Positions 4,837 through 11,036 of a stretch of 64,000 bases of DNA are shown here, one piece after another. The position numbers and the translations under genes are program-made. Numbering within the stretch: position 1 is the first letter of the stretch; every line of letters starts with the position of its first letter. The notes under the pieces were generated by a model. The model searched no databases. It saw only the letters and a list, made by a program, of their open reading frames with translations, and was not told the DNA's origin. Source of the DNA: Candidatus Neptunichlamydia sp. (GTDB lineage Bacteria; Chlamydiota; Chlamydiia; Chlamydiales; Simkaniaceae); NCBI GenBank assembly GCA_965233865.1, contig OZ247587.1:672001-736000 (forward strand). Direction: 5' to 3'.

Positions 4837-7041
4837 ATGTATGCAACTATCATTTTAGATAAAGGGTTAGACCTTCCTCTTGACTATGCCGTTATTGAAA
4901 AGGTTTCGGTAGGAACACGAGTTCTTGTTCCTGTACAAAACTCTCTTAGAAAGGGAACAGTTGTCGCGCTGAAAGATACTCCCTCTGTCGTCAAAGTGCA
5001 GCCCATCAAAGAAGTTCTATCTGAAGAATCCCTAATCGGACCTGATCTCTTTCGTCTAGCTAATTGGATGAGCAAATATTATTGCACCTCATTCCGAAAA
5101 ATTCTGAAAGTTTTTCTTCCTGCAACCATTCGAAAAGAAACGCAGGAGAAAGAGCAGCTTTTTGTCCGTCGACTTCTCTCTCCCAAAAAACTTGTAACAT
5201 TGACTATTTCACTCAGAGAAAATCATCCCTCTCAAGCAAAAGTATTAGATGCTCTTATAAAAAGACCTAAGGGAATTCTTTTAACAGAACTATTAGAAGA
5301 ATCTGGAACTTCTCGGAGTCCAGTGGCAACTCTCGAAAAAGACGGGATCCTAAAGATCGATAAGTTGCAGATTGACCGCTCTCCATTGGAAGACATGGAG
5401 TTTTTCCCTACAAAGCCAAAACTGCTTAGTGATGAACAACAAATCGCCCTCGACAGAATCATCAAAAACTTAAAAAGCTTTCAAACCCATCTGATTCATG
5501 GTGTAACGGGGAGTGGCAAAACCGAAGTCTATCTGCAAGCAATTGCAAAGGCGCGCAAACAAGAGCTGGGGGTTATTCTTCTCGTCCCTGAAATAGCCCT
5601 CACTTCTCAAACAATCGAAAGATTAAAGTCTCGGTTTACCGAAAAAATAGGAATACTCCATCACCGCTTAAGCGACGGGGAGCGATTTGACATTTGGCAT
5701 GGAATCCACAAAGGAGATACCCAAATCGTCGTAGGAGCCCGTTCTGCAATCTTTAGCCCCGTGAAAAATCTGGGATTGATCATCGTTGATGAGGAGCATG
5801 AATCCTCTTATAAGCAGACAGATGAAGAGCCTTGTTACCATGCTCGCGATGTGGCAATTATGCGAGGGAAATTCTCGAACGCAACGGTGGTTCTAGGAAG
5901 CGCTACACCCTCTCTTGAAAGTTATGCAAATGCAAATGCAAAAAAATACACTCTATCTACGCTCATGAAGCGGGCAAAAAACGCTTCCCTCCCTGAAGTC
6001 AAAATTGTTGACATGAAGACAGAGTATGAAAAATCAGAGGGATTCATTCTCTTTTGCTCCCAGCTCATTGATGCAATTAAACTTCGCTTACAAAAAGGGG
6101 AACAAACCCTCCTCTTTTTAAACAGGAGAGGCTACCATACCTTTCAGATGTGCGCAGGATGCGGGGAAACAGTGAAATGCCCTCATTGCTCGGTCAGCCT
6201 CACGTTTCACAAAAAAACAAACCATCTAGCGTGCCATTTATGCTCCTATGTAGTTGCGCCTCCTCCTACAGAATGCCCCCTTTGCAAAGAAGCCGCAACA
6301 TTGCAATTTAAGGGAGTTGGAACTGAGCAAGTAGAGAGAATGCTTCACGCCCTTTTTCCCGACATCCGAACCCTTAGGATGGATGCTGATACCACTCGCC
6401 ACAAAGGAAGCCACGACCTCCTCTTGAAACAGTTCCGCTCTGGAAAAGCCGATGTCCTGATTGGAACACAAATGATTGCTAAAGGACTCCATTTTCCCGC
6501 AGTCACCCTTGTCGGTGTGCTCAACTCAGATGGAGCTCTGAATCTTCCTGATTTTCGCTCTGGTGAAAATGTCTTTCAACTCCTGACACAAGTCTCTGGA
6601 AGGTCAGGACGAGGCGACCTAAAAGGAGAAGTGATCGTTCAATCCTCCCTGAAAGGGCACCCCATTTTCCAGCATGCCTCAAAAGAGGACTACAAAACAT
6701 TCTTCAAGGAAGAAATGGAAACCCGTGAGCTTTTTGCTTTTCCTCCTTTTGCCCGCCTTACCAAACTGGTTTTTTCAGGAAAAAATGAGGGACATGTGAA
6801 ACAGGTTGCCGATACCTTTCATAAAACCCTTCTGAAGAAACTCCCCTCAGACTTTACCCTCTATCCCGTTATCCCCTGCGGCTATGCTAAAATCAAAGAC
6901 AATTTCCGCTTTAAGCTTCTCATCAAAGGAACCAAGCCCCTTCTCCTTTCTTCCATCTTGATGCAATTGCGCCTTGAAATGCACCTACCCCACTCGATCC
7001 GTCTTCTTGTCGACGTCGACCCCACATCAATCTTTTCTTAA
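4837..7041 (+). CDS. priA: Primosomal protein N' (replication restart helicase)
   Basis: GVTGSGKTEVY, DEEH, two CxxC zinc pairs, GTQMIAKG, QVSGRSGR, C-terminal DVDP. Confidence 0.97.
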   Translation: MYATIILDKGLDLPLDYAVIEKVSVGTRVLVPVQNSLRKGTVVALKDTPSVVKVQPIKEVLSEESLIGPDLFRLANWMSKYYCTSFRKILKVFLPATIRKETQEKEQLFVRRLLSPKKLVTLTISLRENHPSQAKVLDALIKRPKGILLTELLEESGTSRSPVATLEKDGILKIDKLQIDRSPLEDMEFFPTKPKLLSDEQQIALDRIIKNLKSFQTHLIHGVTGSGKTEVYLQAIAKARKQELGVILLVPEIALTSQTIERLKSRFTEKIGILHHRLSDGERFDIWHGIHKGDTQIVVGARSAIFSPVKNLGLIIVDEEHESSYKQTDEEPCYHARDVAIMRGKFSNATVVLGSATPSLESYANANAKKYTLSTLMKRAKNASLPEVKIVDMKTEYEKSEGFILFCSQLIDAIKLRLQKGEQTLLFLNRRGYHTFQMCAGCGETVKCPHCSVSLTFHKKTNHLACHLCSYVVAPPPTECPLCKEAATLQFKGVGTEQVERMLHALFPDIRTLRMDADTTRHKGSHDLLLKQFRSGKADVLIGTQMIAKGLHFPAVTLVGVLNSDGALNLPDFRSGENVFQLLTQVSGRSGRGDLKGEVIVQSSLKGHPIFQHASKEDYKTFFKEEMETRELFAFPPFARLTKLVFSGKNEGHVKQVADTFHKTLLKKLPSDFTLYPVIPCGYAKIKDNFRFKLLIKGTKPLLLSSILMQLRLEMHLPHSIRLLVDVDPTSIFS

Positions 7042-7144
7042 GACCAGGTTGCGGTAGCAATCCAGGCTATAAACAAAAGGTTTTTTTCTCTAGATATTAG
7101 TGAAAGCTTCCGTTATTATGGGCTCAAAAACATCCATGGGCCTT

Positions 7145-9439
7145 ATGAACTTTTACATCGAACCTTCAGTTATTGAAAAATATCCAGAATTGAAAGTGGG
7201 AATCCTTATTTTAAAGGGGATTGAAAACAAAGGGAATGCTGAAGAAATCTCAGAGCTTATGGATGCCACCTTTGGGAAAGTAAAGGCTCACTTTGAAGGA
7301 AAAGAACTCACGAAAGAGCCAAAAATTGCTGACTGGCGAGAAGCTTATAAAGCATTCGGATACAAACCCTCCTCTTACCGATGTTCCGCTGAAGCTCTAC
7401 TGCGACGGGTTATTGGAGGTAAAGAACTCCCGAGCATCAATCCTGTTGTCAACTTATATAACCTTATTTCTGTAAAGTATAGCCTCCCTGCAGGAGCGGA
7501 TGATCTGGACCATATCGATGGCGATATTCGACTTGCTATAGCAAAAGGAGGAGAACCTTTCACAACCCTAGGATCCCGCGAAGAAGCAAAAGCTCAAGAG
7601 GGCGAAATCATTTACCGCGATGATGCCGAAATCTTGTGTAAAGCGTGGAACTGGAGAGAGTGTGATAAGTCTAAAATCACCGAAGAGAGCAATAATATCT
7701 CTCTTGTTATCGAAGGGCTCGAGCATACGCGCCCAGGTGAAGTTGTAAAGGCGTTAAAAGAGCTCAGCACACTCATTCAAAAATATTGTAGCGGAAAAGC
7801 AGAGCTTTATTATCTAGATAAAGAGATTTCTAAAATGTGCGACGCTTCAAATCTTGAGAATCGCATGGTCGCTGTTGATATTCCTGAACCTGCCTACCAC
7901 TCCCACGAGTCATTCAAAACGCGTAAACAAAAGCTTAAAGAAATTCGCAATATGGGAGTGAATCCTTACCCCCATAAGTACGAGCCGACCCATCAAATGC
8001 ACGCCCTGCAAGACAAATACGAAGCCTCGGCCGTTGGAGATAGTGAAACAGCGAGCGCTGGAACAACCGACCTTGTTCGGGTTGCAGGCCGTCTTGTTCT
8101 CTTCCGCGCCATGGGGAAAAATGCATTCAGCCAAGTCCAAGATGAAACCGGGCGAATCCAAGTCATGTTTAACAAAGATCAGACCGAAGTCATCGGTCTT
8201 CCATCTGGAGAATCCCCACTTAAGTTCATTGAAAAAAAGCTTGATCTTGGAGATATTATCGGCATCGAAGGACACTCCTTCCGTACCCAGAAAGGAGAAT
8301 TGACCATCTTTGCAAAAAAAGTCATTCTCCTGTGTAAAACCCTTCTCCCTTTACCTGACAAACATGCCGGACTCGCCGACAAAGGGACTCGCTACCGAAA
8401 AAGATGGCTCGATTTAATTACAAACCCCGAAGCCGTTAAGAGGCTAAAAACACGAAGCTTTCTTGTGTCAAAAATCCGCCGCTATATGGAAGATCTTGAC
8501 TTCATAGAAGTCGAGACCCCAGTCCTTCAAAACATTTATGGCGGTGCAGAAGCACGTCCCTTTGTTTCAGAGCTCAACGCTCTCCACCAGACGATGTATT
8601 TGCGTATTGCCATTGAAATTTCACTAAAAAAGCTCATCGTTGGAGGACTCTCTCGCGTTTTTGAAATTGGAAAAGTCTATCGGAATGAAGGCATCGACCG
8701 GACGCATAACCCTGAGTTCACCATGCTCGAGTCCTATGCAGCTTATTGGGATTATAATGACGTGATGACCATGACTGAAAATCTATTTGCCTACCTCGCT
8801 AAAGAGCTATACGGAACAACTGAAATTGGAATGCGTAAGGATAAACAAGGAAATGAACATCCTATCGATCTGAAAACTCCTTGGAATCGACTCTCGATGA
8901 AAGATGCCATTAAGAAATATGGAAAAGTTGACCCTGATAAACTTTCAGATAGCGACATGAGAGCAAAACTCAAAGGAAAGATTGAAGATGCAAAACTTAA
9001 AAATGCTCCTCGTGGAAAACTCATTGCATTTCTCTTTGAAGAATTTGCAGAACATCATCTAATTCAGCCCCATCATATCATCGACCATCCCATCGAAACC
9101 ACTCCCCTCTGTAAACTCCATCGCGACCCTAAGCTCCGCGAAGAAAAATTTGTCGAACGCTTTGAATCCTTCATCCTCGGTTATGAGTTTTGCAATGCTT
9201 ACTCAGAGCTCAATGACCCTGAGCTTCAGCGACAGCTCTTAGAAGATCAAAACAATCTCCGAGAAGGAGGCGATGACGAGGCAAATCCCATGGATGAAGA
9301 GTTTATTGAAGCAATCTGTCAAGGGATGCCTCCAACTGGGGGGCTTGGGATTGGAATCGACCGCCTTGCTATGCTCTTTACTGACGCTTTTTCTATCCGC
9401 GATGTCGTCTATTTCCCTATGATGCGCCCCGAAGAATAG
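7145..9439 (+). CDS. lysS: Class II lysyl-tRNA synthetase with N-terminal B3/4 domain fusion
   Basis: C-terminal ~510 aa has the OB-fold (RVAGR..MGK), YRKRWLDL, YRNEGIDRTHNPEFT and GMPPTGGLGIGIDRL. The first ~230 aa resemble a stand-alone B3/4 protein. Likely start is ATG 7145 (track start 7100). Confidence 0.95.
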   Translation: MNFYIEPSVIEKYPELKVGILILKGIENKGNAEEISELMDATFGKVKAHFEGKELTKEPKIADWREAYKAFGYKPSSYRCSAEALLRRVIGGKELPSINPVVNLYNLISVKYSLPAGADDLDHIDGDIRLAIAKGGEPFTTLGSREEAKAQEGEIIYRDDAEILCKAWNWRECDKSKITEESNNISLVIEGLEHTRPGEVVKALKELSTLIQKYCSGKAELYYLDKEISKMCDASNLENRMVAVDIPEPAYHSHESFKTRKQKLKEIRNMGVNPYPHKYEPTHQMHALQDKYEASAVGDSETASAGTTDLVRVAGRLVLFRAMGKNAFSQVQDETGRIQVMFNKDQTEVIGLPSGESPLKFIEKKLDLGDIIGIEGHSFRTQKGELTIFAKKVILLCKTLLPLPDKHAGLADKGTRYRKRWLDLITNPEAVKRLKTRSFLVSKIRRYMEDLDFIEVETPVLQNIYGGAEARPFVSELNALHQTMYLRIAIEISLKKLIVGGLSRVFEIGKVYRNEGIDRTHNPEFTMLESYAAYWDYNDVMTMTENLFAYLAKELYGTTEIGMRKDKQGNEHPIDLKTPWNRLSMKDAIKKYGKVDPDKLSDSDMRAKLKGKIEDAKLKNAPRGKLIAFLFEEFAEHHLIQPHHIIDHPIETTPLCKLHRDPKLREEKFVERFESFILGYEFCNAYSELNDPELQRQLLEDQNNLREGGDDEANPMDEEFIEAICQGMPPTGGLGIGIDRLAMLFTDAFSIRDVVYFPMMRPEE

Positions 9440-9679
9440 CCTGAGAAAAAGCGATAACGGACAGTTTTTGTTATTTTCGATTTAGGATTCTTGAGAGTGT
9501 TTACTCAAAGAGCATTATAATTTAAGTTGTTTATTATTTATGAGTTAAGTCAAAACTTTCACATCCTGTCATATATGGATATTTTTTATCCTAGAATTTC
9601 TGAAAATTCCTCTATGCAAATTGCTCCTACTTTTCTTTTAAAATTTTTTGCCCATTCATTCTTTTGGTTAACACTCTCC

Positions 9680-9812
9680 CTTCTTTATACGTATGCTCAT
9701 CATACCGAATGGCTGCTTTCTTACTTTTTCTCCCAGGAATTACTAGAGTAATCCTTTTCTCTACTAAGATTTTTCTAAATGGATCACTATCATATCCTCT
9801 GTTAGCAAGCAA
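9680..9812 (-). mobile_element. IS5-family transposase fragment
   Basis: Translates LANRGYDSDPFRKILVEKRITLVIPGRKSKKAAIRYDEHTYKE, the typical ADxGYD...IP....R...YD...YK segment. No ends visible. Confidence 0.75.
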
Positions 9813-10008
9813 AAAACTACAACAGAAACTAACTATAGCTAAAATATTTCTTTCTAGTTATACTTTTTTGAATGATATATTCGCTAGATTTTAAAAAACT
9901 TAGCGATCCAAAATAAAACGCTTCAGACATTCTTAGTGCCATGAAGATGACTAGATACTTAAAATCACATGGTTTTTCCTATTTATAACTATATCTAGCC
10001 TGCACGCT

Positions 10009-10359
10009 GCTAACTTTCTTCTTGATTCAAGGATACGATATTCTACGTTGGAAGGAGCAAATTTTGCAGAAATCATTAAGTGGATTAAAGAATTTGATGA
10101 TAAGGACCCCCTTCTAAAAGAAATCCAAAATATATGGCAGGAGAGTCAGGATGATCTGAACAAGGCAGTAGAAACTGTATCCGAAGCTGTTAAGAATCTT
10201 AAAGAAAAGGGTTTTATCGTTATTCCAGGAGGATGGAAATCAGATCCATTTGGTCATGCAATGCTTTATATGTTTCAAAAAGCAGAAATCGACGCTTTGC
10301 GGGAGCCTTATTTAATCAGGAAACAAAAGAAGACTACAAGAAGTTTAGTAGAAACCTAA
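10009..10359 (+). pseudogene. Fragment of a larger putative effector gene (PGGW...GHAM motif)
   Basis: LEGANFAEII...GFIVIPGGWKSDPFGHAMLYMFQK, flanked by IS remnants and broken frames. 11048-11296 may be a further fragment. Confidence 0.45.
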
Positions 10360-10391: not shown

Positions 10392-11036
10392 TGATCTTCC
10401 CCCGAAAAATAGGACAATTATGATATAGACTTCTCGAACTTAAAGAGGAGTAAAAGCAAATGAAAAAATTCAATGATGAATTTAAAGGGAATGCGGTCAA
10501 GTTAGTGAGAGAGGAGGGACTGAAGATAGAAGAGGTAGCAAGTGATCTGGGTATAGGTGTTTCTACGCTAAAAGTATGGCTCAGTAAGCATGACCATGGT
10601 CGATTGATTAAGACTGAGAAGCAGGCAAGGGAAATCTTAAAAAAGGCCATGGGCATTTTCTCCTCGATGTCAAAAGCAAATACAGAGCTATGAAGAAATT
10701 GAGAAAGGAATTTCCCATAGAGAAAATGTCGCAAGTCTTTGGAGTGACAAGAAGCGGGTACTACCGCTTCGTGTCATCTCCAAAAGGGAAAAGAGTTCAA
10801 GAAAAAGAGAAGCTTACCGAGGAAGTAGAACAGATTTTTTATGAGCACAAAAAACGATATGGAAGCCCAATAATTTTTATGGAACTGAAGGAAAAAGGGG
10901 TGCACTGTAGTGAAAAGAGAGTTACTAACTCTCTGAAGAAGAACAATTTAGTTGCAAAACAAAGAAAGAAAAGGAAAGAAGTTAGTAGTAAAAGAGAAGA
11001 AGCCGAACTTGCTTAACTAGAATTTTACGGCAGATT
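10392..11036 (+). mobile_element. Truncated IS3-family element (IRL, orfA, 5' part of orfB)
   Basis: Left end TGATCTTCCCCCGAAAAATAGGACA at 10392-10416. OrfA HTH 10460-10693 (FNDEFKGNAV...VASDLGIGVSTLKVW...EILKKA). OrfB 10690-11016 (VTRSGYY...RYGSP). No DDE core or IRR. Confidence 0.9.

Follow-up and report, generated by a model that had tools for sequence, protein, structure and literature searches.

A putative CtdA-like deacylase domain fused to the class II lysyl-tRNA synthetase of Candidatus Neptunichlamydia sp.

Several aminoacyl-tRNA synthetases, among them LeuRS, IleRS, ValRS, AlaRS, ThrRS and PheRS, possess a separate domain for post-transfer editing (PMC7373986, PMC11580382). The class II lysyl-tRNA synthetase (LysRS2) is described as editing only before transfer, within its active site (PMC7373986), and LysRS, ArgRS and TyrRS are not listed as carriers of a separate editing domain in the accessible text of PMC7373986 and PMC11580382. 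In the AARS Online table, the domain superfamilies shared between synthetase families are just Edit-LIV and Edit-AT (PMC11580382). The present analysis concerns a stretch of 64,000 nucleotides from Candidatus Neptunichlamydia sp. (contig OZ247587.1, positions 672,001 to 736,000), called the window throughout. Its lysS gene encodes a LysRS2 preceded, in the same frame, by a domain related to the canavanyl-tRNA deacylase CtdA, which probably serves as a tethered editing module. The original prediction, made from the letters of this stretch, had pointed out that LysRS2 normally lacks a separate editing domain, in agreement with PMC7373986.

Two described systems are close to this domain. The first is CtdA, a dimeric stand-alone B3/B4 protein with a helical insert of its own (PMC12449066). 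Its aminoacyl pocket is composed, in S. enterica numbering, of N105, G116, E118, C166, Q173 and I189; the enzyme is inactivated by N105A, G116H/W, C166G and Q173G, its specificity is tuned by C166, and the C. perfringens protein is active with a Glu in place of Q173 (PMC12449066). The second is the B3/B4 domain of the PheRS beta chain, which hydrolyses Tyr- and meta-Tyr-tRNA(Phe). It resembles the domain of the window by its Pfam family, by its basic fold, by its position as a hydrolytic domain on a class II synthetase and by the catalytic-water Asn common to PheRS and the CtdA type (PMC12449066). Of the PheRS pocket residues, CtdA-type proteins conserve this Asn only, and CtdA is unable to take over the editing function of PheRS (PMC12449066).

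The occurrence of one deacylase fold both as a free protein and fused to a synthetase has precedents in CP1 of Leu/Ile/ValRS, in the AlaRS/ThrRS editing domain with AlaX and in ProRS INS with ProXp/YbaK (PMC7373986, PMC11580382). The CtdA-like family follows the same pattern, with free copies of about 233 aa beside LysRS, ArgRS and TyrRS fusions, whereas the folds of the CP1, AlaRS/ThrRS and INS editing domains are unrelated to B3/4. The pre-transfer editing of LysRS, which cyclises homocysteine, homoserine and ornithine, also keeps non-lysine amino acids off tRNA-Lys in the same enzyme (PMC7373986). It takes place, however, in the synthetic site with no extra domain, while the fusion domain is a separate, putative hydrolase whose action would follow transfer.

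In the openly accessible literature, no paper was found that describes LysRS, ArgRS or TyrRS with a B3/4 or CtdA-like domain. The main texts of the CtdA papers (PMC12449066; bioRxiv 10.1101/2024.11.30.626143; PMC10018355) mention neither a fusion nor LysRS or lysyl. The text of one supplementary file of PMC12449066 contains no Simkania, and 'Chlamydi' appears there in PheRS rows only; a single row of this file, considered here by its label alone, is entitled 'Lysyl-tRNA synthetase, class 2' (Alteribacillus persepolensis). In databases the fusion proteins are annotated simply as lysine--tRNA ligase. The architecture is thus visible in domain databases and undescribed as far as the literature searches reach. 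The new element is the combination of a synthetase with an appended CtdA-type deacylase, and the specificity is probably new as well.

The gene occupies a single open reading frame on the + strand (7100..9439), of 779 aa if begun at the GTG at 7100. The ATG at 7145 is the likely translation start because homologues of the fusion protein are mostly 764 aa long, because their alignments in the scan of the phylum begin at residue 13-19 of the 779-aa frame, and because the first 15 codons of this frame, unaligned in homologues, contain stop codons in several relatives. Residues are therefore numbered on the 764-aa protein (779-aa numbering minus 15). The gene and its parts are as follows.

7145..9439, + strand: fusion gene lysS, made of a CtdA-like B3/4 domain, a linker and a class II LysRS; 764 aa, stop codon 9437-9439
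7100..7144, + strand: in-frame upstream stretch with the alternative starts GTG 7100, ATG 7118 and ATG 7136; probably untranslated
7145..7840, + strand: putative CtdA-like B3/4 aminoacyl-tRNA deacylase domain, aa 1-232; Pfam B3_4 core aa 64-215, nt 7334-7789
7841..7894, + strand: linker, aa 233-250, about 18 residues, modelled with low confidence
7895..9436, + strand: class II LysRS body, with N-terminal helices, an OB anticodon-binding domain (nt 8075-8332) and a catalytic domain (nt 8381-9424)

The original prediction had read the N-terminal 230 or so residues as a B3/4 domain and the remainder as a class II LysRS fused in frame. An HMM scan recovered both. Pfam B3_4 (PF03483) matches over profile positions 2-173 of 174 (aa 79-230 in 779-aa numbering) with an E value of 3.7e-28 and 98.7 bits for a cut-off of 29.3, which rules out the absence of a B3/4 hit envisaged at the time. 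The C-terminal 510 residues match the NCBIfam equivalog TIGR00499 (lysS_bact) over profile positions 3-495 of 496 with 564.8 bits (cut-off 427.6), and the LysRS body matches PRK00484 likewise. Within it, Pfam recognizes tRNA_anti-codon, the OB anticodon-binding domain, at aa 311-396 (326-411 in 779-aa numbering) and tRNA-synt_2, the class II catalytic core, at aa 413-760 (428-775) with an E value of 7.5e-86. The motifs quoted earlier, WREAYKAFGYKPSSYRCSAEALLRR, LPSINPVVNLYNLIS, GADDLD, EIIYRD and WNWRECDKSKITE, all occur in the translation. In the full-length AF2 model the linker block 241-250 has a mean pLDDT of 60, and the plain LysRS of congeners starts where the linker stretch ends.

The source genome is a single contig of 1.83 Mb, 96.3% complete. 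It contains two B3_4 matches, namely an ordinary separate PheT and the fusion gene. Only the latter passes the cut-off of the LysRS family, and a class I LysRS was not found in this genome. As the sole LysRS, the fused protein must therefore charge all tRNA-Lys.

The continuity of the gene was verified in several ways. No stop codon interrupts the 764 codons, and the GC content changes smoothly over the junction (7700-8000). Contigs of two public runs, X1 (7350-9557) and X2 (7672-8272), span the junction between the domain and LysRS (7800-7950) with 0 differences; these runs possibly derive from the sample behind the assembly and provide consistency only, not independent support. The same architecture is encountered in 70 further LysRS2 protein clusters from independent assemblies, and the assembly chimera considered at the time is ruled out on this account. 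Two separate genes in close relatives, also considered then, were not encountered: the congeners that lack the domain hold a plain LysRS and no copy of the domain.

The identity of the N-terminal domain was addressed at the levels of sequence and structure. In a phmmer search of PDB sequences, the best hits were the CtdA canavanyl-tRNA deacylases of P. canavaninivorans (9f7e, E 3.3e-30) and S. enterica (9mkl, E 1.2e-26), PheRS beta chains reaching merely 6e-3. An AF2 model of the domain, built with 100 family members in the alignment, has a mean pLDDT of 96.5 and helices at residues 32-49, 59-70 and 81-90. Foldseek ranks 9f7e and 9mkl at the top for this model (TM 0.81-0.87 over 226 columns, E about 1e-23, the best being 7e-24); PheRS beta chains come next (E about 1e-11, the best being 2e-11, query-normalised TM about 0.59). 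The model matches the CtdA-type B3/B4 fold over its whole length, including the CtdA-specific helical insert; identity in the structure alignment is about 27-29%, and the sequences are clearly homologous. The affiliation proposed initially, to CtdA deacylases and the PheRS beta editing domain, can be refined accordingly: CtdA is far closer, by E value (3e-30 versus 6e-3) as by TM (0.84-0.87 versus about 0.59). One difference is that CtdA is a free protein acting on tRNA-Arg and the fusion domain is tethered to a LysRS.

Pocket residues were transferred through a Salmonella plasmid gene, a close CtdA homologue with 348.8 bits to 9mkl. By this alignment N105, G116, E118, C166, Q173 and I189 of CtdA correspond to N106, G117, D119, C165, E172 and V188 of the fusion domain. 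The Asn, Gly and Cys are identical, and the three changes at the other positions (E118 to D, Q173 to E, I189 to V) are conservative; the residues known to be required in CtdA are all represented, in identical or similar form. The first of these changes, together with R176 to K, marks a subtype other than the characterized CtdA. The corresponding positions in the window are given below.

7460..7462, + strand: Asn106, equivalent to N105, which is essential in CtdA and is the sole pocket residue shared with PheRS (PMC12449066)
7493..7501, + strand: Gly117-Ala118-Asp119, where G117 is equivalent to CtdA G116 and D119 to the pocket acid E118
7637..7669, + strand: Cys165, Glu172 and Lys175 (CKAWNWRECDK), where C165 is equivalent to C166 and E172 to Q173, and K175 co-varies with D119

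The pocket acid at D119 is an Asp in most LysRS-linked forms and a Glu in the ArgRS-linked forms. The PheRS pocket (reference residues in E. coli: R244, N254, Y255, H265, F267, A312, G318, E334) is not matched, G117 falling at PheRS His265 and E172 at PheRS Gly318 when positions are transferred via the CtdA alignment. Membership in the PheRS beta editing domain was rejected on the grounds of the marginal E value, of the different pocket residues and of the presence of PheT as a separate gene.

The pocket is well preserved among homologues. N106 and G117 are each conserved in at least 90% of 57 N-terminally fused homologues; among 24 LysRS2-fused rows, 21 keep the C166 equivalent and 21 have a Glu at the 173 equivalent. 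For the four congener pairs out of eight that gave a ratio for both parts (the other four were saturated at synonymous sites, with no ratio for at least one part), dN/dS is 0.070-0.085 in the domain and 0.042-0.054 in the LysRS body. The domain is under purifying selection. It is maintained and, by all sequence criteria, predicted to be a catalytically competent deacylase.

The association of this domain with LysRS is recurrent. A search with residues 1-270 returned 72 protein clusters, all of them (72/72) with the domain joined to a LysRS: it precedes LysRS2 in 61 and follows it in 10, and in one it stands behind a class I LysRS. The close matches originate from Simkaniaceae, Simkania sp., Candidatus Neptunochlamydia, and Chlamydiia and Chlamydiales metagenome-assembled genomes (MAGs). 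In 83 of the 400 genomes sampled across the phylum the domain is matched at E <= 0.001, and 33 of the 400 contain fusion-type frames, counted as rows with E < 1e-55 and an open frame of at least 680 aa. This addresses the question of phyletic distribution raised by the original prediction. The 33 carriers belong to the family of the window itself (16/34 genomes) and to the families f9, f25 (3/3) and f28 (2/2). One family harbors both topologies, N-terminal in G220 and C-terminal in G355. Free genes of 230-300 aa, 30-37% identical, are present in about 20 genomes of the phylum, and the weakest matches, with E > 1e-8 and frames near 800 aa, presumably represent PheT.

The wider family was then surveyed among 1.84 billion representatives, yielding 3614 relatives at E <= 1e-3, of which 273 at E <= 1e-30. 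Partner domains were recorded by a Pfam scan of the 41 proteins longer than 300 aa among the best 150 of these 3614 relatives. Within this set, 25 proteins carry the domain before ArgRS (including P0080, which has two tandem copies, P0087, P0090 and P0093) and four before TyrRS (P0205, P0211, P0212, P0221). Two carry it in front of LysRS2 and two behind it; with class I LysRS it stands once in front (P0106) and once behind (P0101). Four proteins have no second domain. As a side observation, one of P0145 and P0136 has a GNAT acetyltransferase ahead of the domain, and the other an amidase fragment behind it. A scan of named genomes added C-terminal fusions to a class I LysRS (L090, a Candidatus Iainarchaeum MAG) and to LysRS2 (L098, a Peribacteria MAG); the LysRS2 fusion P0140 comes from a Babeliales MAG. 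The same domain lineage is, as these matches indicate, joined to LysRS in at least five combinations of lineage and topology involving two unrelated LysRS classes. ArgRS is the synthetase whose errors CtdA corrects, and the ArgRS fusions would be natural cis-editing ArgRS, presumably directed against canavanine.

Free copies of about 233 aa, with 40-56% identity, occur frequently in DPANN archaea, CPR bacteria, Aminicenantes and other groups. One of them, with an Asp/Lys pocket, lies directly downstream of a class I LysRS gene in a Thaumarchaeota MAG (L087, 966-3181). A set of 57 Asp/Lys stand-alone proteins came from a pattern search whose pattern held the Lys175 motif; this set is biased and is not counted as evidence.

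A tree of the domain was computed with IQ-TREE (LG+G4) from 105 sequences, which cover the complete set of fused forms, one free form in six, three CtdA stand-ins and five additional loci, and was rooted on distant Tyr-type free proteins. The stand-ins include Salmonella and Sinorhizobium plasmid genes and take the place of the real P. canavaninivorans, S. enterica chromosomal and C. perfringens sequences. A TyrRS-linked clade lies near the base. A 26-row clade (98/97) groups the chlamydial N-terminal and C-terminal fusions with free relatives, the N-terminal fusions forming within it a clade of 15 rows that includes the window (100/97) and the C-terminal ones a clade of four rows (100/98). 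A DPANN/CPR clade (100/97) contains L098, L087, L080 and L079, and another clade (85/87) is linked to class I LysRS. The CtdA stand-ins fall in a 47-row group (61/95) along with the C. acetobutylicum homologue, all ArgRS fusions but one and a LysRS2-linked clade (100/93). The deep branches of this tree are weak (bootstrap 56-61). The fusion domain falls outside the group of the CtdA stand-ins, across a deep split of such weak support, and is placed as a sister lineage of the characterized CtdA, not within the CtdA clade.

The pocket residues at CtdA positions 118 and 176 follow the partner. The pair is Glu/Arg in 25 of 26 ArgRS-fused rows and in the three CtdA stand-ins, and Asp/Lys in 17 of 27 LysRS-fused rows; the domain of the window belongs to the latter type (D119/K175). 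Three of the four TyrRS-fused domains have a distinct pocket with His at 118, Thr at 166 and Pro at 189. This distribution is suggestive of a role of the pair in specificity.

On the basis of these observations, the fusion domain probably constitutes a functional tethered post-transfer editing module for mischarged tRNA-Lys. According to this explanation, LysRS would mischarge tRNA-Lys with an amino acid that resembles lysine; the tethered domain would capture the 3' end of the mischarged tRNA and hydrolyse the ester bond, and correct Lys-tRNA-Lys would be spared. Candidate substrates are non-protein lysine analogues, for instance thialysine (S-aminoethyl-cysteine), 4-oxalysine, 5-hydroxylysine or ornithine. 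The domain would most likely behave as a locally concentrated 'trans-like' editor that recaptures released tRNA, with no fixed channel for shuttling the CCA end. Precise docking is probably not needed, because N- and C-terminal fusions exist on two unrelated synthetase scaffolds; such a local editor is favored since both ends of both LysRS classes are used and since no confident packing between the domains was obtained. Recapture of released tRNA has been described for PheRS (PMC7373986). In addition, lysA (TIGR01048) has no match in the single-contig, 96% complete source genome, which suggests a lysine auxotroph. The cell would therefore probably draw its lysine, and with it any look-alikes, from the host. 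A need to filter such imported compounds would agree with the absence of lysA and with the dependence of most carriers on a host.

A wider proposal can be made more tentatively, the balance leaning slightly against it: the sister lineage with Asp118/Lys176 may be a dedicated lysine-analogue-tRNA(Lys) deacylase, a widespread system that occurs as a free protein in many DPANN archaea and CPR bacteria, among others, and was captured at least five times by LysRS of both classes, its Glu/Arg relatives having been captured by ArgRS and the His-type ones by TyrRS. In that case host-dependent microbes would naturally possess cis-editing forms of three synthetases that are taught to lack a separate editing domain (LysRS, ArgRS and TyrRS), and the choice of the look-alike to be removed would depend on two positions of the pocket.

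Several observations weigh against these interpretations. The characterized relatives act on canavanyl-tRNA(Arg) only, and none of them is LysRS-fused or of the Asp/Lys type. The full-length AF2 model (pTM 0.57) does not position the domain relative to the LysRS body with confidence, and therefore offers no structural support for a defined editing path. The correlation between pocket and partner is confounded by descent, and an independent-pairs test of the two found a single pair on supported branches and was underpowered. One LysRS2-fused clade (P0115, P0147, P0116) has a Glu/Arg pocket and P0140 a Gln/Arg pocket; conversely, a free copy with an Asp/Lys pocket lies directly downstream of ArgRS in a Nanoarchaeia MAG (L079, 789-3178). 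The pocket is altered in some fused homologues, namely P0070 (His116, Asn118, Tyr166), P0015 (Gln105, Asn118, Ala173) and L049 (Tyr118, Gln173, Pro189). Lastly, the fusion is present in nine of the 14 species of the genus of the window, and in the five other congeners LysRS is plain (528-539 aa, with 78-85% identity over the matched part) and no copy of the domain exists elsewhere. The module is therefore not essential. It is useful but dispensable, as expected for protection from a conditional hazard.

The existence of a natural LysRS with a tethered CtdA-type hydrolase would amount to a new editing activity in the quality control of the genetic code. It would extend the CtdA family beyond canavanine and designate lysine look-alikes as a real hazard for microbes living off the amino-acid pool of a host. 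Natural controls are at hand in the congener LysRS devoid of the domain, the C-terminal versions, the class I versions and the ArgRS-fused relatives. Genetic-code engineering, in which tRNA is often charged with lysine analogues, could also make use of such CtdA-like domains.

Among the alternatives, the one that survives best is a variant differing in substrate alone. It would have the editing of tRNA-Lys directed at an amino acid from the standard set or from metabolism (for example Arg, Thr, Met or ornithine) in place of an exotic lysine antimetabolite, and is considered unlikely, though not negligible. LysRS2 has to exclude homocysteine, homoserine and ornithine, and LysRS is among the synthetases whose Ser/Thr errors are cleared by ProXp-ST factors (PMC7373986). 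Host-dependent carriers (Chlamydiota, Babeliales, DPANN, CPR) would also suggest unbalanced amino-acid pools. The characterized members of the family, however, discriminate a near-isosteric analogue of the cognate amino acid, CtdA hardly touching Arg-tRNA(Arg) (PMC12449066), and acidic residues, expected to bind a long, positively charged side chain, are retained in the pocket.

According to a second alternative, which appears improbable, the domain would still be a free-acting deacylase of canavanyl-tRNA(Arg), or of basic analogues in general, working in trans, and its fusion to LysRS would serve co-expression or stability only. Its nearest characterized proteins are the CtdA enzymes, which function as stand-alone proteins; its pocket is the same or conservatively changed, Glu173 being found in an active CtdA (PMC12449066); the Glu/Arg pocket of the one LysRS2-fused clade mentioned above is CtdA-like; and the ArgRS of the source genome is a plain enzyme with a 575-aa open frame and no editor of its own. 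On the other hand, the fusions of the Asp/Lys lineage are always to LysRS, in five combinations of architecture and lineage, and never to ArgRS, whose fusions use Glu/Arg-type domains in the proportion given above. The chlamydial clade stands outside the CtdA stand-in group, even if the deep split is weak. Moreover, canavanine is a legume product (PMC12449066) and would not be an obvious hazard for symbionts of protists or marine animals.

A third alternative would turn the domain into a non-catalytic appended module for tRNA binding or protein interaction, like the N-terminal extensions of eukaryotic LysRS. Appended RNA-binding domains are frequent on aminoacyl-tRNA synthetases (PMC7373986), pocket residues are lost in P0070, P0015 and L049, and the domain is dispensable in five of 14 congeners. 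This reading is nevertheless very doubtful in view of the conservation of the residues for catalysis and substrate fit, at the frequencies reported above for N106, G117 and the C166 and Glu173 equivalents, and of a dN/dS (0.07-0.085) near that of the essential LysRS body.

Finally, an artefact, by mis-assembly or by a stop or frameshift missed between two genes, is virtually excluded and was rejected: the 764 codons are open, the architecture recurs in 70 other LysRS2 clusters and in the scan of the phylum, contigs bridge the junction with 0 differences, and the composition is smooth.

The history of the fusion within the genus can be followed with the upstream gene as a synteny marker.

4837..7041, + strand: priA, upstream neighbor of lysS, with Pfam PriA domains; synteny marker only

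The priA-lysS order is kept in domain-free and fused forms wherever the locus reaches far enough, and two congeners (G061 and G339) have priA upstream of a plain LysRS without the domain. In a tree of the LysRS body, the five plain enzymes stand on one side of a branch (70/93), so that one change is needed; the fused genera G053 and G162, which are more distant, lie outside this set. Because of this grouping, a single loss of the domain in the congeners is favored, with modest support. No remnant of the domain was detected by tblastn (E up to 10) in the 784-bp priA-lysS spacer of G061. An origin from a neighboring gene was also sought, but the free high-identity copies of the domain in the chlamydial genomes G130 and G138 do not lie within about 6 kb of lysS.

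Two irregular LysRS frames were recorded in the course of this work. In one congener with a plain LysRS, a second, partial LysRS-like frame of 391 aa (L027, G054:C4:36745-37839) is located at a distance of about 1.4 kb from the full lysS and has 89% identity to residues 400-764. In a MAG labelled Verrucomicrobiae, the fused LysRS (L058, 3251-4791) is in two pieces overlapping at body residue 296-298 or so, with an open frame of just 585 aa, which may reflect a frameshift or an assembly error.

Downstream of lysS, an AT-rich stretch (9350-10100, GC about 0.30-0.34) separates the gene from two short overlapping open reading frames on the + strand (10460-11016). These match the transposase-type helix-turn-helix domains HTH_Tnp_1 and HTH_21 and are consistent with the front part of an IS3-like element. 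Within the AT-rich spacer, position 9566 shows a C/T difference in contigs of all three runs compared, at about half of the summed depth.

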